Notes: generated from the letters alone by a model not told the origin. A stretch of 64,000 bases of DNA from Alphaproteobacteria bacterium (GCA_045639065.1 JAZUCK010000001.1:11331-75330), one strand, 5' to 3'; positions 1,481 to 28,461 are shown, counted from the stretch's first letter. Numbers and translations: made by a program.

Positions 1481-4105
1481 TTAAGCCTTATTTAAGATGT
1501 CAAAAACTTTTGCTGTCAAGTCACCTAAGCTGTATGGCTTAGTAATAAACTCGAATTCATGAGTATTGTCAACTTCTTTACGAGCAATATCTTCAGAATA
1601 TCCAGAAGCCAAGATAACATCTATATTCGGGAGTTTTTCTTTGACGATGTTAGTAAGCTGGGCTCCGCTCATTCCAGGTAGCACCATGTCTGTCAGTAAT
1701 AGGTTAAAGTCACTGTCTTTTTCTATTATTTCGAGAGCGTTTTCAGCCGAATTTGAATCGACTACATCATATCCTTTTTTCTTTAGTGCTCGAACAGCAA
1801 AAGCTCTAACGGAATCTTCATCTTCGACAAACAAAATTCGTGCCGGGCGAGATCCTTTATCAACTGCGGAACTGCTTCTGTCAATAGTGTTAGAGATATT
1901 TAAGCCCATAATTATCTTTTGATTGATATTATTCGGAGTTGAGAATGTTTCTTCAACCTTTAGGATTGTATGTCCTGATTTGTCAGTTATAACCGGTGAC
2001 GCAATGTTGGTATTTTCTTCTTCGGGACCGGTTTCAAAGCGAGGTAAATAAATTGAAAAAATTGTTCCTTTGCCAACCTCGGAGGAAACTTTGATAAATC
2101 CTTCGGTTTGGCGTACAATACCATATACCATGGCTAAACCTAATCCGGTACCTGATCCTACAATGTTTTCTTTGGTTGAGAAGAACGGATCAAATATTCT
2201 TTCTATAATTTCTTTAGGTATTCCGCAACCGGTATCTTCGACATCGATAACAACAAAATCTCCAGGCATAACGACATCATCACCAAAGGTATATTTTTCA
2301 ACTAATTTATATGTTGAAGTTGAAATAGTAAGGTTACCTGTTCCTGACATAGCATCTTTAGCATTAACAGCTAAGTTTATGATTACTTGAGAAAATTGTG
2401 TCGGGTCGACTTTTATATAGCCTAAATCGCTACCATGTTTTATTGATAGCTTAATTTTTTCACCCAAGATTCTTTTTAACATTTGACTGAGGTCTGCAAA
2501 GGCATCAGGAACATCAATAAGTTTCGGTAGTAAAGGTTGTTTACGTGAAAAGGCCAATAACTGACGAACTAAAGAAGTTGCTCTGTTTGCATTTTGCTTA
2601 ATTTGAATAAGGTCAGCGAATGAAGGATCGCCAACACCATGCCTTTGAAGCAATAAATCAGTAAAGCCTATCATTGCGGTCAAAAGATTGTTAAAGTCAT
2701 GGGCTACACCACCTGCAAGTTGTCCGACTGCTTGCATTTTTTGTGCCTGAGTAAATTGAGCTTCTAAACTTTTTTGTTTTGTAACATCAATTGCATATAT
2801 AATGTACTTATGCTCGTTTGTTTTATCATTTTGATGTAGGTGGTGCAGTTCATTTATATACAAATTTAGAGTCGTATCGTTGGTTTTAAGCTCGGTTGTA
2901 ATTGATTTGTGTGTGTTGGTAGCTTTATCCAAGGCATTTTGTAATATAGAGGTTTCTTCTGCGGATAGTTTTCCGTATAAGTCAATTGAACCTGAATTAA
3001 GGTTAAACAGTTCGGAAGCTTTAGGGTTGGCCTTTTTTATAATGCCTGAACGGTTGATAAATAATATACCAATGGGCGAATTATTAAAGAACCAGTTTAT
3101 ATCATCTAAGGATTTATTAACTTGCTGTTGTAGTTCTTCAGGGGTTGGAAGCTGATGAATGACTGCACCGCGAAGCATTATTTTTTCTTTTTCTCTATAT
3201 GAGTTTTGAAAAACAAAAGTTTCGGCGGTTTCACCGGAATGTTTAGTAAACAAGAGCTGTCCGCTCCATAAATCTCTATTTGTAGGAACAGATGAATCCG
3301 AAGATAAGAAATTACGTAATGAAGTTCCGATAAGTTGATGTGGTTTTAAGCCCAAAAAATCAGCCATATTATGATTTACATAATTTATGGTATAATCGGT
3401 GTCTATAGTGTATAAGCCGATAGGAAGGTAATCTAAGAAATTATGTAAAGATGTACTTTCTTCTTTGAATACATAATCCATATTTTGTTTGGCTGTGATA
3501 TTATTTATGGTCCAATAAAAATAAGTTTCTTTCTTGATTCGTTTTATAGAAAAAGCTCCATCAAAAATATTTGGTTTTTTTAAGTATATCGGACGAACCG
3601 AAATTTCAAAGTATTCTAGGTCATTAAATATTAAATTACTGTTTTGCTTTAGCAAAAGCGATAAGGTCACTTTTTCGGAACTTAAGTTTTTTACTGCAGT
3701 TTGTAATCTATAGAAAGCTGCTTTTGTTGAAGAGCCTTGAGTTAAGTATTTTTCTAAAAATTTAAGTACATTTTCGTTTTTGAAAAAGTCTTTTGCAGGT
3801 GCATTTTCAATTATGGTTTCAAAATTTGAGTTTTCGATACGACGCATTTTAAAATCATTTTTGATTATTTCGTTGGCAAATCCGCCGTAGCTGATGGCTG
3901 TTTCTCCCGCATATAAAGTTTTTATAGCTGTAGTCAAGCAGTAAATTGTTGTAAGCGATGTTATAATTGTTGAATAGAGAATATGGGCTCTGTCTAAGAA
4001 AAACCATAGCAAGCAAAGCGTTAATATTATTAAAGAAAAGGCTAATTTGAGTAATGCTTTTTCTAAAGTTTTATCAGGTCTATTGTTGTTTGAGTTGCAT
4101 AACAT
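1481..4105 (-). CDS. cckA: CckA-like hybrid sensor histidine kinase (TM, PAS, HisKA, HATPase, receiver)
   Basis: QAQKMQAVGQLAGGVAHDFNNLLTA H-box, INLAVNAKDAM N-box, GTGLGLAMVYGIV G2 box, C-terminal REC domain; directly downstream of flhB as in many alphaproteobacteria. Confidence 0.9.
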   Translation of the reverse strand: MLCNSNNNRPDKTLEKALLKLAFSLIILTLCLLWFFLDRAHILYSTIITSLTTIYCLTTAIKTLYAGETAISYGGFANEIIKNDFKMRRIENSNFETIIENAPAKDFFKNENVLKFLEKYLTQGSSTKAAFYRLQTAVKNLSSEKVTLSLLLKQNSNLIFNDLEYFEISVRPIYLKKPNIFDGAFSIKRIKKETYFYWTINNITAKQNMDYVFKEESTSLHNFLDYLPIGLYTIDTDYTINYVNHNMADFLGLKPHQLIGTSLRNFLSSDSSVPTNRDLWSGQLLFTKHSGETAETFVFQNSYREKEKIMLRGAVIHQLPTPEELQQQVNKSLDDINWFFNNSPIGILFINRSGIIKKANPKASELFNLNSGSIDLYGKLSAEETSILQNALDKATNTHKSITTELKTNDTTLNLYINELHHLHQNDKTNEHKYIIYAIDVTKQKSLEAQFTQAQKMQAVGQLAGGVAHDFNNLLTAMIGFTDLLLQRHGVGDPSFADLIQIKQNANRATSLVRQLLAFSRKQPLLPKLIDVPDAFADLSQMLKRILGEKIKLSIKHGSDLGYIKVDPTQFSQVIINLAVNAKDAMSGTGNLTISTSTYKLVEKYTFGDDVVMPGDFVVIDVEDTGCGIPKEIIERIFDPFFSTKENIVGSGTGLGLAMVYGIVRQTEGFIKVSSEVGKGTIFSIYLPRFETGPEEENTNIASPVITDKSGHTILKVEETFSTPNNINQKIIMGLNISNTIDRSSSAVDKGSRPARILFVEDEDSVRAFAVRALKKKGYDVVDSNSAENALEIIEKDSDFNLLLTDMVLPGMSGAQLTNIVKEKLPNIDVILASGYSEDIARKEVDNTHEFEFITKPYSLGDLTAKVFDILNKA

Positions 4106-5150
4106 ATCTAATAACCTCGGCTACAGCGTGGAAATGTTCAACAGGTATTTCTTGATCAAGCTCGGTTGATGCAAACAAGGCACGGGCAAGCGGCGGATTT
4201 TCTACGATAGGAATATCGTTGTCTTCAGCCACGGCTTTGATGCGTAAGGCAACAGTATCCACACCTTTTGCCGTTACTTTTGGTGCCGGCATTGTTTCCA
4301 TCTTATATTCTAATGCTACAGCATAATGGGTCGGGTTGACAATAACAACATCTGACTTGGGGACATTTTCCATCATGCGTTGACGAGCTCTATCCATACG
4401 TATTTGTTTTATCTTTGATTTTACTAAAGGATCACCTTCCATTTGCTTATATTCTTCTTTGACTTCTTGTTTGGTCATACGAAGTTTTAGCAAGTGAGAA
4501 TATTTTTGCCAAAAATAGTCGCCTGCCGCAATAACTAATACAGCCATGGTAACGGTAAATAACAGCAAAATAACTATGTCGTGGATAAAGACTAAGATTG
4601 CAAAGGTATCCATTGTAGGTAATAGTTCGCTTTTGGTAATATATGGGCGTAGTACAACGTATGCTAAAATACTTACTACTGTTATTTTTATTATTCCTTT
4701 TATGCTTTCTACGATTTTTTGCTTGTTTATAAATTTGGGAATAGCTGCAAATATATTTAATTTATTCCAATTCGGTTCGAGTTTTTTGGGAGCATAGATA
4801 AATCCTGTTTGGCTTAGGGAAGCAAATATACCTAATATTATAAATATTAGGAAGGGAATTCCCATTACTTTGAAAAATCCGAAGAAGGCTTGTTTTAATA
4901 ATATAATAAAACCGGCAACATCAACATTGGTTGAGGCTGAGCGAGCTATAAAAGATGAACCTATAGTTTTAAGCCATACAAACATTATGGGAATAAATAG
5001 CCACACAACAAAAAGAGTGCCGACAAGCATAATAAAACTTTTGGCATCTTGCGATATGGCAACGTCGCCTTCTTCTTTGGCTTTGGATATTTTTCGTTCG
5101 GAAGGTTCTTCGGTTTTGGACGCTTCGTCTTCTTCTTCGGGGGCTACCAT
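4080..5150 (-). CDS. flhB: Flagellar export apparatus protein FlhB
   Basis: KTEEPSERK N-terminus, KEEYKQMEGDP, NPTH autocleavage motif, ENPPLARAL. Confidence 0.97.
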   Translation of the reverse strand: MVAPEEEDEASKTEEPSERKISKAKEEGDVAISQDAKSFIMLVGTLFVVWLFIPIMFVWLKTIGSSFIARSASTNVDVAGFIILLKQAFFGFFKVMGIPFLIFIILGIFASLSQTGFIYAPKKLEPNWNKLNIFAAIPKFINKQKIVESIKGIIKITVVSILAYVVLRPYITKSELLPTMDTFAILVFIHDIVILLLFTVTMAVLVIAAGDYFWQKYSHLLKLRMTKQEVKEEYKQMEGDPLVKSKIKQIRMDRARQRMMENVPKSDVVIVNPTHYAVALEYKMETMPAPKVTAKGVDTVALRIKAVAEDNDIPIVENPPLARALFASTELDQEIPVEHFHAVAEVIRYVMQLKQQ

Positions 5151-11092: not shown

Positions 11093-11169
11093 GGCGAACG
11101 TAGCTCAGTTGGTAGAGCCCCGGTTTGTGGTACCGGTTGTCGTCGGTTCGAGCCCGATCGTTCGCCCCA
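11093..11169 (+). tRNA. tRNA-His(GTG)
   Basis: Cloverleaf with GCGAACG/CGTTCGC acceptor stem, G-1 and C73, anticodon loop TT-GTG-GT, GTTCGA T-loop, encoded CCA. Confidence 0.96.
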
Positions 11170-11436
11170 TTTAAAAACCCTGACCTTGAGTCAGGGCTTT
11201 TTTTTGCGAACAATCGGGCTCTCAGGTTCGAGCCCGTCTTGTTACGTAAGGTTGTAGTTTTTTCTACAACCTAACTTCACTTCGGGCAAGCCAATGTAAC
11301 ATTTGCAACTGACGCCGTTTCCGGCTATTGCAAATTAACAATGTCTGAAAGTTCGTGGCAAAAACAGTTCACTGAAATGTTTTTGCTCACAAACTCGTTC
11401 GCCCCATTTAAAAACCCTGACCTTGAGTCAGGGTTT
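11158..11436 (+). repeat. Direct repeat of the tRNA-His 3' end plus terminator (about 11158-11200 and 11395-11436)
   Basis: TCGTTCGCCCCATT(T)AAAAACCCTGACCTTGAGTCAGGG occurs twice, 237 bp apart, around a hairpin-rich spacer. Confidence 0.9.
11173..11205 (+). terminator. Intrinsic terminator after tRNA-His
   Basis: AAAAACCCTGAC-CTTGA-GTCAGGGCTTTTTTT. Confidence 0.85.
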
Positions 11437-11441
11437 TGTTG

Positions 11442-13688
11442 TTATCTTTTTAGCATTTTAATTTCAAGTTTTATATCATTTCTTTTTTGTTTGTATTTTT
11501 TACGTTTTTTACCGAAACATATTTTAGATAATATGTAGTATTTATAATATTTAAGTTTTAATTTTCGGATACTTGAACTTGATGACGATATTTTCTTTAA
11601 TATGAAATAGTACGGATTATACATTTTTTCATTTTCACAGGATAAAGCTTCCGTTAAAAAGTTTTGCGAAATGTCTAACCATTTTTTTAATCGTTCGGCA
11701 AAATCTGTATAATCGATTTTGTCTGCATTTCTAATTATTGAATTGTCAATTTTTTGAGAAATTACAAATGATGATTGGGGAATATTAAACATTTCAAAAA
11801 GAGATTTTACTCTTTCTTGGCGACCATTATCTTTTCCGATATAAATGAATTGTTTGTTAAATATTAAGCAAAAACATATACAATGGAATGAATCGGTAAG
11901 GACGAACGATGCATTGTTTAGAGTAGCTAACCATTCTTCAATAGTTAAATTATGGCGAATACTCTGAAAATTGCTAAGTGAGTTTTCGGCTTCTTTATTA
12001 AGTTCTTCGTTTACAATATAGTATACATTTTTGGTATTTTTTACTGATGTATCGGCAATTTTATTCCATTCGTCTTTTGTCAGTAAGAAGACAGGATCTA
12101 ATACATGAGTTGCTTTGGTTCTAAATACATCTCGACAGATATCTACACCACTTTTTTCTCTGACACCTATTCGATTAAATTTTGAAAGTAACATACCAAC
12201 ATTGTCAATTTCATCATTTGAAGCAGAAAATTTGGCTTGTCCGAAAGATGCCGAATAGGCGATACTTTTATTTGTATCATCAACAAAACCTAAGAAATAT
12301 ATGTGTTTATATTTAGAAACAAACTCGTAATTAAAAACTTGATCAGAGCCCACAATAAATGTGCCAAAATCGTCATTTAGTTTTATTAAATCTTTCATCG
12401 AGTTGCATTTGTACGTTAAAGGAAGATTTTTTGCTCTAAATTCAGGGAAATTTGATGAAGAATAACTATTTTTACCCCAAGCCGGTGTATAATCAATATT
12501 ATATGCATCAAATCCCAGCGAATTGATGTACTTGTTTAGTGCGTATGATGTTAATATTGCGCCGTAATTGTTATTTTCAAAATGAAAATTGAGTAAAGCA
12601 ACTTTTTTATTTTTATCAAATATTTGAGATATTGTATCATCAAAACTAAATTTATCCAAATATTCAAAGAATTTGTCGCGGGCAAAATGCTTTGGTGAAG
12701 GATTACGAAGCTGTGGTTGTAAAACCTTATCTTTGGGATATTCTTTTAGAAATAAAGGATTATGTTTTTTTATGTTATCTAACAAAATTGTTCCTTTATT
12801 ATTTATGGAAATTAAATTTATCCCCTTATTATCATCGATATTTTCCGGACATCCCCAAAAATCACCGACCATGATATCCGAAACTCTGTTTGTACTGGCA
12901 TAAGGACAAGAATGACAACTTTTTCTTAAGCATATGTCTGATAAAAATGCTTTATAGAATGTATCATTATGCATTACTTCACTATACAAAATATTTTTAT
13001 CGTCGCTTATTACAAATGTAAAAGTATGCCATCCTAGTTTTTTGTTTCGGAAATTGACCGATACATCATTTTTTATATCTTTTTCAAGATGTTTACTCTC
13101 AATAAATTTTTCAAAAACCTTAGGTGATGGAACGCCGTGACAAATTAAATCTATTAAATACAAATTATCGTAAGGTTTTGATAAAAATTTTCTTAAAGCA
13201 TTTACTTGACAAGGTGTACCGACAAAAGCAACAACATCGCCTTCTTTTAATTTATCGGCCACTTCATTGTAAATATTTTCAGTATCACTTTGAAAATATT
13301 TTGACCCACGCATATATTTGTCAAAAAAATCAAAGCTTTTAGTTAAGCGATGAGCTAATTTTCCTTTGTAAAACGATGCTCCGCAAAACCAACCGCCTTG
13401 CTCTATAATATGTTTGGCAATTATTGCGCACATACCGCCGGTTGAACTTTTACTTCTTTCAATCTCATTTTTGCTGTAAACAGCATAAAATTTTCTGTCA
13501 TCGGTCGGGATATTTTCTTTTTGTATTGGGCAAACTTTATTACATTTTGTACAATTGATACAGGCATTTTCATCTACTACAGGATATAAAAATCCTTCAT
13601 TATTGGGAATCATTTTGATTGCATTTACCGGACATACATTTTTGCAAGCCCCACAGCCTGTACAATTATCAAAATTAACATCAATCAT
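11442..13688 (-). CDS. Fusion of 4Fe-4S dicluster / F420 hydrogenase beta-like domain and polysaccharide pyruvyl transferase
   Basis: CTGCGACKNVCP and CINCTKCNKVCP ferredoxin motifs, GSKYFQS, GTPCQ, CHGVPSP, DIMVGDFWG; then NYGAILTSYAL, GSDQVFN, YSASFG, VREKSG, DPVFLL, TDSFH. Confidence 0.85.
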   Translation of the reverse strand: MIDVNFDNCTGCGACKNVCPVNAIKMIPNNEGFLYPVVDENACINCTKCNKVCPIQKENIPTDDRKFYAVYSKNEIERSKSSTGGMCAIIAKHIIEQGGWFCGASFYKGKLAHRLTKSFDFFDKYMRGSKYFQSDTENIYNEVADKLKEGDVVAFVGTPCQVNALRKFLSKPYDNLYLIDLICHGVPSPKVFEKFIESKHLEKDIKNDVSVNFRNKKLGWHTFTFVISDDKNILYSEVMHNDTFYKAFLSDICLRKSCHSCPYASTNRVSDIMVGDFWGCPENIDDNKGINLISINNKGTILLDNIKKHNPLFLKEYPKDKVLQPQLRNPSPKHFARDKFFEYLDKFSFDDTISQIFDKNKKVALLNFHFENNNYGAILTSYALNKYINSLGFDAYNIDYTPAWGKNSYSSSNFPEFRAKNLPLTYKCNSMKDLIKLNDDFGTFIVGSDQVFNYEFVSKYKHIYFLGFVDDTNKSIAYSASFGQAKFSASNDEIDNVGMLLSKFNRIGVREKSGVDICRDVFRTKATHVLDPVFLLTKDEWNKIADTSVKNTKNVYYIVNEELNKEAENSLSNFQSIRHNLTIEEWLATLNNASFVLTDSFHCICFCLIFNKQFIYIGKDNGRQERVKSLFEMFNIPQSSFVISQKIDNSIIRNADKIDYTDFAERLKKWLDISQNFLTEALSCENEKMYNPYYFILKKISSSSSSIRKLKLKYYKYYILSKICFGKKRKKYKQKRNDIKLEIKMLKR

Positions 13689-13706: not shown

Positions 13707-14654
13707 TTATACTTTGATATTAAAAGTATTTGTTACCTTTTTTACAAGATAGTTGCCGATAAAGGCATGATTTTCGAGTGTTTTTGAGCTTTTTTCAAAA
13801 TCAAAAGCGAGTATTTCTTTTTTTACTTGATAAAAATAGTCGACAATCTTTTGATCGTCATCTTGTGTAATTGTGGAATTACGAAATTTCTTTTCTAAGT
13901 CTTTACGAATTGTTGACATATGATGCATTGCGATTTCGTGTTTCGGAAACAAGAAAAATTTACCAAGACCATTCATTTTTCGGGTCGGATCAACAACGCA
14001 GGGAAAATATCCTTTTGATTTTACGCGTTTTGGAACGTTTATTTTGCAAATGAACGGGACATAAAAAGTAAATTGACCGGAAAGCTCGTGCGCATGTTCA
14101 TTTGCAGGAGAAAATATATAGTTGCTTACAAGTTGATATGTCGGGTCTTTTAAGTATTCAATAATTGAAACAGCCGAGCATTCAATTTTTTTTCTGACGA
14201 TAAAGTCTTTGGCTCTCTCGATTTCATCTTCAAAATAAAATTCATCGGTATCCATACTTAAATAATGGGTGCAACCGGCTTTTTTTGATATTTTCAATCC
14301 TAATTGTCGCTTGTTTCTTTCGTTCTCGGAAGCATGTAAATTTAAATTCGTATTATATAAAACATATTCGTCAATCAGGCCTCTTTCTTTTAAATCGGCT
14401 AATTTTATTTCTATGTCGTTGTTCCTTGTTTCGCCACAATTTGAAACTATTTGGTATACAACACTGATATAATGAGCAGATTTTCTTACTGATTTTATTG
14501 ATGCTTCGAGCAATTCTTCTCCGTCAAACAGGTTATACGAAATTCCGAGTTTTATTTTTTTGCTGTTATTTTGCTCGTAGGAGAATATTTTTTTGTTGAA
14601 CAAATAAAATTCGCGAATGTTGCCATTTTTTATTTTGTAGAAGAATTTACCCAT
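13707..14654 (-). CDS. Putative glycosyltransferase (GT-A / GT2-like)
   Basis: SYNLFDGEELL, ERNKRQLGL, DTDEF DxD motif, late HHM; in glycan operon. Confidence 0.65.
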   Translation of the reverse strand: MGKFFYKIKNGNIREFYLFNKKIFSYEQNNSKKIKLGISYNLFDGEELLEASIKSVRKSAHYISVVYQIVSNCGETRNNDIEIKLADLKERGLIDEYVLYNTNLNLHASENERNKRQLGLKISKKAGCTHYLSMDTDEFYFEDEIERAKDFIVRKKIECSAVSIIEYLKDPTYQLVSNYIFSPANEHAHELSGQFTFYVPFICKINVPKRVKSKGYFPCVVDPTRKMNGLGKFFLFPKHEIAMHHMSTIRKDLEKKFRNSTITQDDDQKIVDYFYQVKKEILAFDFEKSSKTLENHAFIGNYLVKKVTNTFNIKV

Positions 14655-14689: not shown

Positions 14690-14754
14690 TCTATAAAAAC
14701 AAACGTTTATTTTATATAGCAAATCTTATAATTCAACAAAAAGTATAATGCAAG
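14690..14754 (-). promoter_or_regulatory. Sigma70-like promoter (-35 TTGCAT, 17 bp, -10 TATAAG) with downstream hix-like site; paralog of 27364-27428
   Basis: 48/65 ungapped identities to 27364-27428 by manual alignment; faces the 14654-11442 operon. Confidence 0.65.
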
Positions 14755-14896
14755 ATAAATTAGATAATTCAATGATTGTGGGTTATTTTTTTTATGCTTA
14801 GTTTGTATGATATACGAACGTTTATAAAAACAATATTTTTGTATGGAATATTGCTTTGGGATTGTAAAATGAGAAAGTTTAGTGGTTGTTATCAAT

Positions 14897-16096: not shown

Positions 16097-16170
16097 TGCT
16101 TCGTCGTCTAATGGTAGGACAGCGGATTCTGACTCCGTCAATCTTGGTTCGAGTCCAGGCGAAGCAGCCA
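16097..16170 (+). tRNA. tRNA-Gln(CTG)
   Basis: TGCTTCG/CGAAGCA acceptor stem, anticodon loop TT-CTG-AC, GTTCGA T-loop, encoded CCA. Confidence 0.95.
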
Positions 16171-16455
16171 ACAAAAAAATCCACCTGAAAAGGTGGATTT
16201 TTTTATTGGCTTAAAGGACAAGAACCAAGATTTTGGTTCGGAGCGGATAGTTGGCGAAAACGAGTGTTGAGCTTAGCAAAACGCTTGGCGAAATACGAAG
16301 TTTGAGGCTTACGACGCGAGGAGGACCCGCTTTAGCGGGAGTACCCAGTCCAGGCGAAGCAGCCAATAAAAAAATCCACCTGAAATGGTGGATTTTTTTA
16401 TTGGCTTAAAGGACGAGAACCAAGATTTTGGTTCGGAGCGGATAGTTGGCGAAAA
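16152..16455 (+). repeat. Two ~109-bp direct repeats (16152-16260, 16347-16455) starting in the tRNA-Gln 3' end and including its terminator
   Basis: AGTCCAGGCGAAGCAGCCAA...ATCCACCTGAAA.GGTGGATTTTT...GATAGTTGGCGAAAA repeated with a 195-bp period. Confidence 0.92.
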
Positions 16456-23528: not shown

Positions 23529-24098
23529 TCAATAAGAAGAGTTTTGGTGTTTTTTTAGTTTAGGAAGCACAACATTTTGGAGGTGGTCGTTTTGACTGTT
23601 TTTAATGAATTTTTGAGCCAATTCATCTGTTTTTTTAATAAACTTAGCCGGATTTCCGGCCCAAACTTCGCCATCCGGAATACTTTTGGTTACAACAGAG
23701 CCGGCTCCGACAACGGCATTATCTCCAATTGTAACACCGGACATTATAATGCTGCGACATCCTATAAAAACGTTGTTGCCTACTTTTATGTCATTAAAGG
23801 CGATAACATTTTTTGTGTCTTTATAGTCTATATATTGCAAAGCTCGTAAAAAACTACCGTCATGAGTTAAGAAACAAACATCATAAGAAATCAGACAATT
23901 ATCGCCGATTTCGATTAGAAAAGGCTCTGAGCCGAAATTGGGGTGTCCGACAAATTTGCTGTCTTTGCCGATTTTCACTCCGAGAGAACGATAATATTCA
24001 TTGTTGTCCTTATATTTTTTGTAGCTAAATGTCTTTATTCCCAAAAATTTTATATGAATTTTTCCGTTTGGTTTTAAGACCTTTTCGAATATTTTCAT
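23529..24098 (-). CDS. Left-handed beta-helix (hexapeptide) O-acyltransferase
   Basis: GSEPFLIEIGDNC, FLTHDG, VGNNVFIG, VVGAGSVVTKSIP..VWAGNPAK. Confidence 0.88.
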   Translation of the reverse strand: MKIFEKVLKPNGKIHIKFLGIKTFSYKKYKDNNEYYRSLGVKIGKDSKFVGHPNFGSEPFLIEIGDNCLISYDVCFLTHDGSFLRALQYIDYKDTKNVIAFNDIKVGNNVFIGCRSIIMSGVTIGDNAVVGAGSVVTKSIPDGEVWAGNPAKFIKKTDELAQKFIKNSQNDHLQNVVLPKLKKHQNSSY

Positions 24099-24136: not shown

Positions 24137-25021
24137 TTAATCTATTTTTTGATGTATCAAATTACTTAATTTTGTACCGCCTAGTTCGTTTAAGTGATCA
24201 CAATCCTTAAAATCAATTATTTCGAATAATTCGGAATCGTAGTAATCAATTATGCAAATTTGCGGATGTTGTTTTTGCAGTTTGAATAATTCGCTGAACA
24301 AAACGTTTTTATTCGGCAATAACAGTCTTAAATCTGCACGCATTGGTGGAATTATGACATATAATTTATGATTATTCGCTACGGTATCGCATACAAATTG
24401 TTTTATGTATTCGTGTTGTGATGAATTGCGTCTGTTGTGTTTTAGCCAACGTCTTGCTATTGATGCAACATCACAAATCTCATTTTTATCCTGATAAAAA
24501 CAAGATTTTCCTCTGTAATCATCTGATGTTTCAGCAGGTGTATTTTTTAATATGGGAGAAAGACATCTTTCCAAGTGTTTTAATGATTTCGGAGCTTCTT
24601 CCTGATAGTCTATATCATAAAAAATTTTATAGGGTATACACTTAAATGCTTCATTGGTTTTGCATAATTGAAAACCGGGAGAAAAAGGCGAATAAAATAA
24701 TATAATGTTTTCTAAATTAGGGTGTTTTTTAGCCAACATATATTTATAAAGATTGTACGATATATATAAATCTTGGCTTGAGCCGCCCAAATTGTAGTCA
24801 TTTTGTTTGGGGACAAAACCGTTCATGGCATGAGAAGAACCTAAGATGAGATTTTTTACATTTTTGGCATTAGCTATGTTTTTATATTTTACCGTATCCA
24901 ATCTCATTGTAGGCATATTATTTTTAATAAAAGACTTGCCTATATACTCATAAATTTTAAATCCGAAAAAATAAACCTCTCGCTCGCCGTTTGAGTTCTT
25001 TTTTTTGTAAAAAAGTTTCAT
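24137..25021 (-). CDS. Putative SGNH-fold esterase/acyltransferase in glycan operon
   Basis: ILGSSH block I, DCDHLN DxxH block V. Confidence 0.6.
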   Translation of the reverse strand: MKLFYKKKNSNGEREVYFFGFKIYEYIGKSFIKNNMPTMRLDTVKYKNIANAKNVKNLILGSSHAMNGFVPKQNDYNLGGSSQDLYISYNLYKYMLAKKHPNLENIILFYSPFSPGFQLCKTNEAFKCIPYKIFYDIDYQEEAPKSLKHLERCLSPILKNTPAETSDDYRGKSCFYQDKNEICDVASIARRWLKHNRRNSSQHEYIKQFVCDTVANNHKLYVIIPPMRADLRLLLPNKNVLFSELFKLQKQHPQICIIDYYDSELFEIIDFKDCDHLNELGGTKLSNLIHQKID

Positions 25022-25059: not shown

Positions 25060-26745
25060 TTATTTTGTTGTTTTATTTGGTAGTTTCAACATTTCACCAA
25101 ATTTATAATCCCATGTAACAGGCTCAAATGCATCAGTTCCGTTTCCTGGATAAAATGTCAACTCGCCTATATATAATTTTTCTCCTGTATCAAAAAAATC
25201 AACGCGCACAAAAGGAAATTCTTTGGACAACTTTTGTGCTATCTGCATCATTTCTTCAAAATTATTAGGTTTATTTATTCCATTTGGAGATGGATGAGAT
25301 GTCCATGTAAAAGGCAATTTATTATATTCAGCATCGTAAAAGTCATAACATTTGTTATTGAATCTGTCAGATACAATTAGCATAAATTTTATTTGGTTAT
25401 TAAAGCAATAGAATTTATAATCATACAAATCACCATTAAATTGTTGTAAAAACTCTTCAACAATAATTTTAGGCTCGATATCTTTATATACCCACTCAAA
25501 AAAGCTATAGTAATGATTGTTTTCCGGTTTCATCCAGTTTGATAATTTTTGTTTTGCTTCTTTGATGTCTAATTTTGACTTATCGGTTACGATAATATTT
25601 TGACCGCTACCCCAATTTACTTTGGCAACAAATTTATTCGGTAATGCATCAAAGTCTATTTCATCTGCGGAATTATATATTCCGATAATCGGCACCAAAT
25701 ATTCTTCGCCGATTTTTTCTTTTACATAATCTCTGACACCAACTTTGTCGGCACATTTGGTCATCAATGGGTCACGATAATAAAGCTTCAGCCATTGGAT
25801 TTTTTCGTTAAAAGTTTGAGGATTATCAAGATTCAATTCATAACCGGTTGCCTTTTTGAATTGAACTTCAAGACAATAGCGTATTTCTTCCTCGGTTAAC
25901 CCCTTAAAACGTTTGGCATATATTTTTTTGTATTTTTTATTCTTCTTTTTGTAACTGAATAATTTTATACCAAGCAGATAAATTGTTCTTTTACCGTCAG
26001 GTCCTTTTACCTTCTTGAATATTTTGAAATTAGGGTATTTTAATTTATCTTGGTTGTGTTTTTTTCCGTAGTGATATAAAAAATCTCCATTTTCACGATG
26101 TTCTGTTCCTTTTTCATAAAAGGGCAAGACACTGATATTGTTTTTCCATATTGCATAGTCAAATGATAATTGGTCACGTTTTGAATATTTTTCTATCATT
26201 TGCCACCACAATGACAGAGCATCCTTAATATTGTTATGTCGTCTGAAGATTATGCATGTTTCATGTAGTCCGTTATTAGTAGGATAATTTTCTGTTTTTA
26301 AGTGTTTCATTTCTTCTTTTACGGTTTTTGCGTAATCTATATCGGCACCGATAATTATTTTTGCTTCTTCATAAATGCATGCTCTTGCAGGATGTAACGG
26401 GACACTTATCTGAATGTTGTCAGCCAACATTTTTTCCACTTTATTTATTACATTTGGGGATTTAACAATAATGTTAGCATCAAGCCATAAGCTTGCTTCA
26501 TAGTTTGGAAATAAGATATGTGTGTTTACCTTATGCCATCTGGCATTTTTTACATTTGTTTGCTTATCAAAAACAAGAGGTCTTATTTCCCAGTGACCGA
26601 TGTGCTTCTTTTCAATAAGTTCTTTATTGTCTGTGAAAAACACATAATCCCAATCGTTACTTACAGCTTCGTATTGAGGGATGTCATCATATCCTCCGGT
26701 ACAACATGTATAACAAACTATTTTATGACTGTTTTTTGTAACCAT
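25060..26745 (-). CDS. Fusion of DUF616-like glycosyltransferase and TupA-like ATP-grasp domain
   Basis: YTCCTGGYD, WLDAN, HPARACIYEEA, SKRDQLSFDY; then NPQTFNEKIQWLK, DKVGVRDYV, YDYKFYCFN, RVDF, GELTFYPG. Confidence 0.85.
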   Translation of the reverse strand: MVTKNSHKIVCYTCCTGGYDDIPQYEAVSNDWDYVFFTDNKELIEKKHIGHWEIRPLVFDKQTNVKNARWHKVNTHILFPNYEASLWLDANIIVKSPNVINKVEKMLADNIQISVPLHPARACIYEEAKIIIGADIDYAKTVKEEMKHLKTENYPTNNGLHETCIIFRRHNNIKDALSLWWQMIEKYSKRDQLSFDYAIWKNNISVLPFYEKGTEHRENGDFLYHYGKKHNQDKLKYPNFKIFKKVKGPDGKRTIYLLGIKLFSYKKKNKKYKKIYAKRFKGLTEEEIRYCLEVQFKKATGYELNLDNPQTFNEKIQWLKLYYRDPLMTKCADKVGVRDYVKEKIGEEYLVPIIGIYNSADEIDFDALPNKFVAKVNWGSGQNIIVTDKSKLDIKEAKQKLSNWMKPENNHYYSFFEWVYKDIEPKIIVEEFLQQFNGDLYDYKFYCFNNQIKFMLIVSDRFNNKCYDFYDAEYNKLPFTWTSHPSPNGINKPNNFEEMMQIAQKLSKEFPFVRVDFFDTGEKLYIGELTFYPGNGTDAFEPVTWDYKFGEMLKLPNKTTK

Positions 26746-26747
26746 TT

Positions 26748-27335
26748 TTATTGTTCAACTCCTTTTAATTCAGGATTTTGTTGCAGATATTTGAAGATTA
26801 AGGCCATGGAACAGCCTATCTCATCTGCAATTTGTCGTTTGCTTCTTCCTAATTTGAGCATTTGAGTTATTTTTTGTTTGTTTCGTTCTAATATGGTGTT
26901 TTTACATTTTTTGCCTTTGGGAAAACCAAGAACCGCGCCCTCATTTTTTTTGTCACTTAAGGCTTTTTTGGTTATGGTCGAAACCATAGAATTACGGATA
27001 TCTATTGATAATTTGATACCTTGTATAAGTAATAAGGCTTCTTGTGATGAATTTAGTTTAAGATTTTCTTTGACACTGATTAGTTCAAATCCGTTTGATA
27101 TTAAAAACTCTATATTTTCTACAATTGTTGCCAACTTATTGCCTAAACAGGCGATATTGGCAATGATTAGAGTATTATTTTTTGTATTGATATTGTTTTT
27201 GATACTTTTGATGTCTGTTGCACAAAAAAACACATCAACCGTTTCCATATTTTGTTGGACAGATTGATTTATGACATCCTGTTGATTGTCTACGCTGATG
27301 TTTTTGGGGTTATTGTCTAAATATCCAACAATCAA
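26748..27335 (-). CDS. Serine recombinase (Hin/resolvase) homolog lacking catalytic residues, with C-terminal HTH
   Basis: VGYLDNN replaces GYxRVS; TLIIANIACLGNK replaces TLVVxKLDRLGR; G..LGFP arm and SKRQIADEIGCSMALIFKYL HTH retained; TTG start with GGAGG RBS. Confidence 0.75.
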   Translation of the reverse strand: MIVGYLDNNPKNISVDNQQDVINQSVQQNMETVDVFFCATDIKSIKNNINTKNNTLIIANIACLGNKLATIVENIEFLISNGFELISVKENLKLNSSQEALLLIQGIKLSIDIRNSMVSTITKKALSDKKNEGAVLGFPKGKKCKNTILERNKQKITQMLKLGRSKRQIADEIGCSMALIFKYLQQNPELKGVEQ

Positions 27336-27363
27336 AATTTGCCTCCATCAGTGGAATTTAGAA

Positions 27364-27522
27364 TCTACAAAAACCACCGTTTAAATTTAATAGTAAAATT
27401 CATAATCCAACAAATTTTAAATTGCAAGCAAAAAATCAGAAAACACAGTGGGTTTGCTTAAATTTACTCCTCTCTTGAAAAATAAGCAAATTTGCCTCTA
27501 CAAAAACGGTGGTTTTTGTTGA
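27364..27522. promoter_or_regulatory. Candidate invertible promoter bounded by inverted 26-bp hix-like sites (27364-27389, 27497-27522)
   Basis: 16-bp perfect inverted repeat, complementary AC/GT central dinucleotides, internal -35 TTGCAA / 17 bp / -10 TATGAA on the minus strand. Confidence 0.65.
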
Positions 27523-27538
27523 ACCATCGTTTTTTTTT
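27505..27538 (+). terminator. Plus-strand intrinsic terminator overlapping the right hix-like site
   Basis: AACGGTGGTT-loop-AACCATCGTT-TTTTTTT. Confidence 0.65.
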
Positions 27539-27657: not shown

Positions 27658-27683
27658 TGAACCTTTTCATTTATACTGTCGTT
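27658..27683 (+). promoter_or_regulatory. Putative autoregulatory ECF sigma promoter (second copy at 23276-23301)
   Basis: TGAACC-N16-CGTT, resembling SigW/SigX-type ECF promoters, upstream of the ECF operon. Confidence 0.6.
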
Positions 27684-27708
27684 ATAAGTGGTAGAAAGGA
27701 GATGAAAA

Positions 27709-27963
27709 ATGCAAGATATTTCTGATTTAATCAAAGAAGCAAAACCTTTGTATCACAAACGAAAAAGACAAAGACGCATTGTCAAATCGGCATTGGCCGG
27801 TGTGGCATGTTTGTTCTTGGTCTTTGTAAATATGCCAAGTTATCAGATGGTTGATGATTTTTATAATCCTTATTTGGATTACGGATTTCAAGAAAATCAG
27901 GAAACATATGTTGAAAATCTCGGCTTGCCGGTTGATGATTACGGATTGCTTTTGGTGAGCTAG
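27709..27963 (+). CDS. Small single-TM protein, possible anti-sigma or ECF-associated protein
   Basis: Basic stretch, one TM helix; stop abuts the sigma start; RBS AAAGGAG. Confidence 0.55.
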   Translation: MQDISDLIKEAKPLYHKRKRQRRIVKSALAGVACLFLVFVNMPSYQMVDDFYNPYLDYGFQENQETYVENLGLPVDDYGLLLVS

Positions 27964-28461
27964 ATGAGAAATATCATTGAACAAAATAAGGGCTTGATAA
28001 AAGCCATAATCAAAAAAATTACCGGTTCGTATAATGACGATATCGAACAAGAGGTCTATATCAAAACTTGGAAAAATATCGATAATTATAAAGAAAGCGG
28101 AAAGTTAAAATCTTGGATTGCCACGATTACAGCCAATGTTTGCAGAGATTATTTTAAGTCGTCATCATATAAACAGAATATGCGTGAAGTGAGAGATGAA
28201 AGTGTTTTAGAAAACAAAGCTATTTTGGCTTCACAAGAAAAAGTTATAGATGCGAAAAAAAGGCAAAAAATAATCTTAAAAGCAGTTGATGAGTTGCCGT
28301 ATAAAATGCGAAAAGTTGTGATTTTGTTTGAATTTGAAGATTTTACTATCGCTGAAATTGCAAAGAAACTTGGCGAGCCGGAAGGAACTATTAAATCAAG
28401 ACTTTATAATGCAAGAAAAGTCTTGGCTGAAAAATTAAAATTTTTACTAGGAGAAAAATGA
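27964..28461 (+). CDS. ECF RNA polymerase sigma factor
   Basis: DDIEQEVYIKTW, SWIATITANVCRD (region 2), EIAKKLGEPEGTIKSRLYNARK (region 4). Confidence 0.92.
   Translation: MRNIIEQNKGLIKAIIKKITGSYNDDIEQEVYIKTWKNIDNYKESGKLKSWIATITANVCRDYFKSSSYKQNMREVRDESVLENKAILASQEKVIDAKKRQKIILKAVDELPYKMRKVVILFEFEDFTIAEIAKKLGEPEGTIKSRLYNARKVLAEKLKFLLGEK

Follow-up and report, generated by a model that had tools for sequence, protein, structure and literature searches.

A probable serine-invertase promoter switch in an uncultured gut alphaproteobacterium precedes a putative glycan operon whose first gene encodes a catalytically degenerate recombinase paralogue

Inversion of promoters that drive variable surface glycans is one of the principal ways in which gut bacteria escape phages and the immunity of the host, and it has been worked out mostly in Bacteroides. 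DNA inversion of the Hin/Gin type takes place at 26-bp sites that consist of two 12-bp half-sites around a 2-bp core and lie in inverted orientation, and it involves a recombinational enhancer to which Fis binds. At fimS of E. coli, FimB and FimE are catalytically active tyrosine recombinases, and orientation-dependent expression of a recombinase biases switching. At sites II and III of Tn3 and gamma-delta res, and at site II of Sin, non-catalysing resolvase subunits bind DNA in architectural or repressor roles, the same active protein serving in both capacities. In Bacteroides fragilis, Mpi acts in trans and inverts 13 regions, of which seven are PS promoters (PMC4747536). Large catalogues of invertons exist (PMC11602134); thus, the switch reported here is not new in kind, and the new element is a dead recombinase paralogue as the predicted first product of the ON state.

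The locus lies within the window, by which we mean the whole 64-kb stretch of alphaproteobacterial DNA that was analysed, and it most resembles the Mpi system of B. fragilis, with which its relatives share a small serine invertase of the NF009949 family and with which it shares short putative promoter segments flanked by inverted repeats (IRs) and placed before probable surface-glycan operons, several switches per genome and a gut habitat. It differs from that system in its hosts, which are uncultured gut Alphaproteobacteria (according to the labels of metagenome-assembled genomes (MAGs), with Candidatus Scatocola among them), in its repeat sequences (class A, ACAAAAACCACCGTTT; class B, TAACGAACGAT), in the first gene of the ON state, which is a dead recombinase paralogue here and UpxY/UpxZ there (PMC10403206), and in that many relatives have an adjacent invertase of their own for each switch. 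With Hin/hix of Salmonella and Gin/gix of phage Mu it probably has in common the enzyme superfamily, its inverted sites have a layout that fits 26 bp (12+2+12), and the family profile of the paralogue matches, in its HTH, the DNA-binding domain of Hin (1HCR). In contrast to Hin and Gin, the invertases neighbouring the switches of this family score as Mpi, and the segment is 131 bp long and gene-free, whereas Hin inverts a segment of about 1 kb in which the invertase gene is located. Our reading, to which we give a probability of roughly 0.85, is that the locus is a serine-invertase promoter switch for phase variation of a surface glycan operon, with the invertase acting in trans. The features on which this reading draws are as follows.

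27364-27389, no strand: site L, the gene-proximal crossover site, TCTACAAAAACCACCGTTTAAATTTA; outer half TCTACAAAAACC, which stays with the operon flank, proposed centre AC (27376-27377) and inner half CGTTTAAATTTA.
27497-27522, no strand: site R, the distal crossover site, TCTACAAAAACGGTGGTTTTTGTTGA; a near-perfect 26-bp palindrome, TCTACAAAAACG-GT-GGTTTTTGTTGA.
27378-27508, no strand: invertible segment, 131 bp if exchange takes place at the central dinucleotides; assembled ON, with the promoter toward the operon.
27383-27503: unique interior of the invertible segment, 121 bp.
27399-27427, minus strand: candidate promoter in the segment; -35 TTGCAA (27427-27422), 17-nt spacer, -10 TATGAA (27404-27399).
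27472-27482, minus strand: TTTTTCAAGAG, a box conserved in the family (consensus TTTTTCAARAG) and located toward the distal segment end.
27502-27538, plus strand: terminator-like hairpin (27502-27534, 14 pairs) with T9, from a terminator scan; overlaps the distal site.
26748-27335, minus strand: gene 1, 195 aa, TTG start, GGAGG at 27346-27342; catalytically degenerate Mpi-like serine-recombinase paralogue.
25060-26745, minus strand: gene 2, 561 aa; TOD1/MUCI70 glycosyltransferase-like and TupA-like ATP-grasp domains.
24137-25021, minus strand: gene 3, 294 aa; no family match in Pfam or NCBIfam.
23529-24098, minus strand: gene 4, 189 aa; hexapeptide-repeat sugar O-acetyltransferase (WbbJ/WcaF-like).
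14690-14835, minus strand: second, paralogous promoter cassette; promoter TTGCAT-N17-TATAAG (14753-14725), proximal arm TCTATAAAAACAAACGTTT intact.

A first-pass annotation of this DNA had proposed that sites L and R are inverted copies of one another, and their coordinates, the perfect inverted match of 16 nt between 27367-27382 and 27504-27519 and the overall identity of 20/26 between site L and the reverse complement of site R (our own count) were all reproduced from the sequence. A repeat finder independently placed arms of 19 nt each at 27364-27382 (TCTACAAAAACCACCGTTT) and 27504-27522 (AAACGGTGGTTTTTGTTGA), 95% complementary (18 of 19 positions match) across a gap of 121 nt, and also reported the palindrome within site R, in which 27497-27507 pairs with 27512-27522. 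The layout is 12-2-12: GT is the centre of symmetry of site R, and the core dinucleotide is AC in site L and GT in site R. When the 19-mer arm was searched for with at most 3 mismatches, the 64-kb window held three matches against 0.02 expected from shuffles, the third being the paralogous cassette at 14690, and the 15-16-nt core ACAAAAACCACCGTTT, which defines the class A repeat, also occurs at orthologous and more distant loci (L021, L037). The sites had been called hix-like and of the Hin/Gin type. The resemblance holds at the level of the superfamily and in the 12-2-12 layout; however, the invertases found beside related switches belong to the Mpi family and are not demonstrably Hin/Gin. 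The figure of 18/26 for site R against hixC is arithmetically right for the string quoted as the hixC consensus in that annotation, and the half-site ACAAAAACC resembles the hix half-site quoted there.

Direct evidence for inversion comes from a contig in the opposite orientation from the same species. The closest database relative of gene 1 (P0002) is held by a 745-bp ENA contig from another assembly (L012), a metagenome contig that is about 99% identical to the window; because the synonymous divergence between the two copies of gene 1 is only 0.009 (pS), we assign the window and L012 to the same species. The first 45 nt of L012 correspond to the plus strand of the window at 27477-27519, after which the contig follows the minus strand of the window through the proximal arm into the gene. 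Inversion of 27378-27508 in silico gives 138 of 140 nt identical to L012, and the first 30 nt of the contig are absent from the ON form. L012 ends inside the invertible segment, as expected where an assembler meets two orientations, and it is this one 745-bp contig from which the OFF state is known in the window's own species. The comparison of orientation across conspecific genomes, which the first-pass annotation had put forward as a check, thus returned the opposite orientation. Where a single orientation together with no serine invertase had been named as the outcome that would speak against a switch, both orientations occur in the species and Mpi-family genes lie beside related switches. 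The proposal of an ON/OFF invertible promoter, assembled here in its ON orientation, is therefore upheld by L012, by three related loci and by the adjoining Mpi-family invertases.

Those three independent related loci likewise show both orientations. The closest orthologous locus encodes proteins (P0004 and P0007) with 69% identity to gene 1; its arms read CAAAAACCACCGTTT and its promoter TTGCAT-N17-TATGAA. Across 12 different samples it is ON in four contigs (L021, L022, L026, L027) and OFF in eight (L023-L025, L028-L032), with flanks identical in most of them and distal flanks that differ in L024 and L027. The contigs L003 and L011 form an ON/OFF pair with nearly identical flanks and a reverse-complemented interior. 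The only sequence common to both of their sites is CAACGT, which includes the position homologous to the proposed central dinucleotide; thus, exchange at that pair falls within those 6 bp. The class B repeat is found ON in L010 and OFF in L015 and L016. In L037, a family member at greater distance, the window's 16-nt core is found again, there in the OFF orientation. When genomes were scanned with the family alignment, 11 loci came up, all in MAGs of gut or rumen origin that are labelled Alphaproteobacteria, with one of the 11 belonging to Candidatus Scatocola (Rhodospirillales), and a scan of metagenome contigs yielded only 4 further loci. At most of the 11 loci, an IR-flanked segment of about 100-126 bp with the same promoter cassette precedes the gene-1 homologue, the exceptions being loci cut by a contig end (for example L004) and L014, in which no repeat pair was found. 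The cargo of the relatives is also glycan-related and includes RgpF, GT2 and pyruvyl transferase genes. The locus and its relatives place Mpi-type machinery in gut Alphaproteobacteria that are still uncultured, and public assemblies show that ON and OFF populations both exist in nature.

Such switches break metagenome assemblies and give orientation-dependent gene calls. Many of the fetched contigs of switch loci end at the repeats; among the P0004 contigs, 9 of 10 do not reach 2 kb, and an arm forms the very start of several. The same gene is called with different N-termini according to the orientation of the switch, giving products of 195, 209, 211 and 222 aa (proteins P0001, P0002, P0004 and P0007). 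All four contigs of P0007, the 222-aa form, are OFF, and the product length in databases can therefore serve as a proxy for orientation. In one of the ON contigs of the closest orthologous locus (L027, positions 1-45), the distal flank is an inverted near-copy of the proximal flank, which extends the IR to 34 nt; in strains of this type, one promoter segment may toggle two divergent operons, or different switches may have recombined with one another.

The segment carries the minus-strand TTGCAA-N17-TATGAA at 27427-27399 just as it had been annotated. It was passed over by a generic promoter scan, since TATGAA as a -10 element lacks the usual terminal T; nevertheless, the motif TTGCWW-N17-TAWGRA and the flanking blocks TTTRTTGG and TTTRCTAT are conserved, with a fixed polarity of the promoter cassette relative to the segment, in the cassette of the present window at 27.4 kb (WIN), the window's cassette at 14690 (W14), L021, L003, L005, L006 and L013. 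The predicted transcription start site (TSS) lies near 27392 on the minus strand. In the OFF form built in silico, the promoter comes to lie at 27459-27487 on the plus strand, with a TSS near 27494. It had further been suggested that a plus-strand terminator overlapping site R insulates the neighbouring operon. The terminator scan does find a hairpin with T9 at that position, the hairpin folds at about -16 kcal/mol and is kept after in-silico inversion, and insulation by it is plausible; however, no equivalent terminator or hairpin at the distal arm is evident at the other loci compared.

We propose the following course of events. A small serine invertase of the Mpi family, encoded outside the window, would bind as dimers to 27364-27389 and 27497-27522, pair the two sites, cut at or near the central AC/GT, rotate and religate the ends and thereby flip about 131 bp (27378-27508). 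In the ON state, the promoter would fire on the minus strand from the TSS near 27392, through the proximal site and into GGAGG-N6-TTG at 27335, and the transcript would encode the dead recombinase paralogue, the ATP-grasp/glycosyltransferase-like protein, the gene 3 product and the O-acetyltransferase, leading to decoration of a surface glycan. After inversion to OFF, the promoter would point toward the ECF-sigma operon and meet the hairpin and T9 within about 45 nt, before that operon is reached, so that the glycan operon would be OFF and its neighbour insulated.

A further conserved element of the segment is the TTTTTCAARAG box, which was read from the orientation-normalised segments of WIN, L021, L003, L005 and L013 and is present in L037 too. 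Measured from the distal end of the invertible segments, it is situated about 20-30 nt inward, and it could be an accessory or enhancer-type site for protein binding. Beside this box is an apparent relic copy of the proximal arm, Shine-Dalgarno (SD) sequence and start codon (GAGGCAAATTTG), at which an 11-nt direct repeat joins 27335-27345 and 27488-27498. We also considered a riboswitch or attenuator, in which the L arm would act as an antiterminator by pairing with the 5' arm of the terminator, and rejected it: Rfam gave no match on the locus at gathering thresholds and only chance-level matches at E values up to 10, and the evidence for inversion makes such a reading unnecessary.

Canonical serine recombinase genes, identified by the motif YxR[VI]STxxQ, adjoin the switch in L002, L005-L011, L013, L015-L019 and L038; their products carry GYCRISTxxQ or GYIRVSTDKQ together with SRLGR, and the genes are divergent at class A repeats and on the same strand at class B repeats. 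The two neighbouring invertases that were tested pass the equivalog cutoff of the NCBIfam Mpi model NF009949 (274 and 307 bits against 272), and the scores against other NCBIfam models (CcrA, XisF, YneB, IS607) are far lower; the NCBIfam scan assigned the invertases beside homologous switches to the Mpi family and gave no Hin/Gin/Pin/Cin subgroup. No canonical serine recombinase is present in the 64-kb window, in which the position held by the invertase in relatives is taken by the ECF-sigma operon, and the enzyme would thus have to act in trans from another part of the genome. Flipping is seen at the orthologous P0004 locus, which likewise has no adjacent invertase; action in trans is therefore sufficient.

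The same observation bears on the most serious alternative, namely that the locus is a fossil switch that once inverted, has lost its invertase and is now locked ON, the difference in L012 being a fixed strain polymorphism. Such a history would agree with the absence of a canonical invertase from the window, and relatives that look locked do exist: the invertase of L003 is N-terminally truncated, the arms are degenerate in L033-L036, where all four contigs are ON, and the cassette at 14690 is of this kind as well. We nevertheless regard a fossil as unlikely, since the arms of the present locus are intact at 18 of 19 positions and their perfect 16-nt core is identical to that of the distant L037, since L012 is flipped in spite of about 99% identity and breaks off inside the segment, and since the P0004 locus, with no adjacent invertase, is still found in 4 ON against 8 OFF contigs. 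Still less probable is the action of a tyrosine recombinase in place of a serine invertase. Many promoter switches of gut bacteria do use tyrosine recombinases, and the acting enzyme is not seen in the window; however, Mpi-family serine recombinase genes abut homologous switches in at least 10 locus types, the pseudo-palindromic 12-2-12 sites are typical of small serine invertases, and none of the 14 window ORFs of 290-405 aa that were scanned matched the Phage_integrase domain.

Two arrangements around the invertase genes of relatives may be recorded here. Where the Mpi-family invertase is divergent, the promoter in its OFF state points into the invertase gene. In addition, in L005, L006, L011 and L013 a conserved palindrome, CTTACAAATAGTTA-CA-TAACTATTTATAAG, covers the ribosome-binding site of the invertase, about 60-110 nt upstream of the distal arm, and in L008 a different palindrome occupies the same position; these palindromes may be translational or transcriptional control elements of the invertase.

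The first-pass annotation had missed that gene 1 is itself recombinase-like. Over its full length, gene 1 matches the NCBIfam Mpi 'master DNA invertase' model (NF009949) at E 7.5e-21, with a score of 74.7 bits that is below the cutoff of 272, and its match to Pfam Resolvase is sub-threshold. In an AlphaFold (AF2) model that draws on 85 homologues (pLDDT 77), the chain shows the beta-alpha-beta pattern of the catalytic domain, a long helix at residues 98-131 and a C-terminal HTH, and the best Foldseek matches of this model in the PDB are the Tn3, Sin and gamma-delta resolvases and Gin, at a probability of 1.0, with 5CY1 and 2R0Q among them. The predicted structure thus has the elements of the small serine recombinase fold: an alpha/beta catalytic domain, an E-helix and a C-terminal HTH. 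Alignment of the 85 family members with 8 canonical neighbours by hhalign also spans the full length (probability 99.55%, E 2.4e-23).

Serine recombinases catalyse strand exchange with the Ser nucleophile of the motif YxRVSTxxQ and the Arg residues of the (D/S)RLGR and ExR motifs. In gene 1, the profile-profile alignment places D at R7, N at S9, C at R72, N at R75 and I at R130; across the 85 family members the change of R7 to D is invariant, position 9 is S, N or C, and position 75 is N or S. With these catalytic positions replaced, the gene 1 protein should not cleave DNA according to the established chemistry of serine recombinases. Gene 1 is under purifying selection and is not a decaying pseudogene, given a dN/dS of 0.13-0.20 in comparisons among paralogues and orthologues. 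In 1.84 billion cluster representatives, searched exhaustively with the profile, there were 2219 relatives at E<=1e-3; among the best 150 of these 2219, 104 are of full-length size, of which 78 are without both catalytic motifs and 19 have both, and the first canonical protein stands at rank 48. The literature that we searched describes no phase-variable locus that begins with a dead recombinase gene; such searches are not proof of absence, and the catalytically dead Mpi-like family appears to be undescribed.

That the gene 1 product itself might be the invertase, working with a non-canonical active site, has to be weighed because it is the only recombinase-like gene in the window, because a member of its family follows the switch at nearly every fetched locus (the exceptions being L004, at a contig end, and L014) and because the P0004 locus flips with no canonical enzyme adjacent to it. 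We give this very little credence: gene 1 has Asn where the nucleophile should be, at a position that varies within the family; Asp, Cys, Asn and Ile stand throughout the family in place of the catalytic Arg residues; the type of HTH does not follow the IR class of the switch to which it belongs; and most loci come with an intact Mpi-family enzyme. A reading of the repeats as operators of an HTH protein, or as a by-product of the terminator palindrome, with no inversion at all (the fallback of the first-pass annotation) can draw on the operator-type palindrome of site R, its overlap with the hairpin and the HTH protein encoded by gene 1, but it is the least probable of all because both orientations, with breaks at the repeats, are directly observed in this species as well as at three related loci, although operator use could coexist with inversion.

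The HTH modules of the family include type 1 (GCS..IFKYLQ) and type 2 (GIS..LYNYLK). In L003 and L011, the dead-recombinase genes (4001-4600 in each) are near-identical over the first ~125 codons and then continue into different C-terminal HTH modules, a pattern that indicates modular recombination at the linker. It was considered whether the dead paralogue reads the repeats of its own switch as a cognate invertase would, and this was rejected, as the HTH type does not covary with IR class: L003 and L011 differ in HTH type in spite of near-identical switches, and type 2 is found at class A as well as at class B repeats.

We tentatively suggest, as a possibility that we would not yet put at even odds, that the dead paralogue, predicted to be made in the ON state only, is a dedicated regulator of DNA inversion or of the hierarchy among loci. 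It might occupy crossover or accessory sites or join the active invertase in inactive hetero-oligomers, and in this way stabilise the ON state or else bias or block other switches, and its swappable HTH module might set which loci are addressed. If this is true, the paralogue would be a recombinase-derived analogue of FimE-type orientational control or of UpxZ-type cross-locus inhibition. As at fimS, a recombinase-family protein would be expressed according to orientation, with the gene 1 product made in the ON state only and, in some relatives, the invertase gene faced by the promoter in its OFF state; unlike at fimS, the protein in question is a dead serine-recombinase paralogue, and the feedback is hypothetical. 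Similarly, the best Foldseek matches of the gene-1 model include resolvase accessory-site complexes (5CY1 and 2R0Q); in contrast to Tn3, gamma-delta and Sin, the protein is here encoded by a separate gene and has lost the active site altogether. Further regulators of Mpi have been suspected (PMC10403206), and a recombinase-derived regulator would be a concrete candidate for inversion bias and for the hierarchy among the multiple switches of one cell.

Many relatives encode, directly after the dead recombinase, a protein of about 335 aa (L011 4593-5597; L017 2096-3094; L038 3096-4115), which has overlapping HTH matches in Pfam along its whole length and apparently consists of several tandem HTH domains of resolvase type. 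The window operon is without this multi-HTH protein. In L038 (1-2260, GCA_965345445.1), an HU-like gene, an Mpi-family invertase, the switch, the dead recombinase, a multi-HTH protein and two GT2 glycosyltransferases follow one another directly downstream of phage tail genes (GpJ-like), and L017 shares the HU-invertase arrangement; some of the switch-controlled glycan modules may thus be prophage-borne serotype-conversion cassettes.

In the window, the four co-oriented ORFs of the minus-strand operon previously annotated at 27335-23529 are present, and a simple scan found no terminator at the operon end. From the domains of genes 2 and 4, the operon may fairly be labelled as one for the decoration of a glycan or surface polymer. 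The paralogous cassette at 14690 faces a gene for a 315-aa protein (13707-14654) and a Fer4/FrhB/polysaccharide pyruvyl transferase fusion (11442-13688). Because its distal arm is degenerate, this cassette is probably locked ON; as a second live switch it was rejected, the distal arm being too degenerate to call. It is without a dead-recombinase gene, and L033, which has similar cargo, has one.

Elsewhere in the window, long palindromic hairpins are duplicated about 200 nt apart at 16166-16211 and 16361-16406 and at 11174-11201 and 11410-11437, just downstream of tRNA genes at 16097-16167 and 11094-11166, respectively. The pair at 16166 comes with a repeated tRNA 3' end (16140-16156 against 16216-16232 and 16411-16427). 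These tRNA-adjacent hairpins may have arisen by duplication of terminators, or they may be what is left of integration events at the tRNA genes. On the other side of the switch, an ECF-type promoter-like motif read by eye, GAAC-N17-CGTT, lies at about 27659-27685 on the plus strand, upstream of an 84-aa ORF (27709-27963) and the ECF sigma gene (27964-28461), which suggests that the ECF operon is autoregulated independently of the switch.
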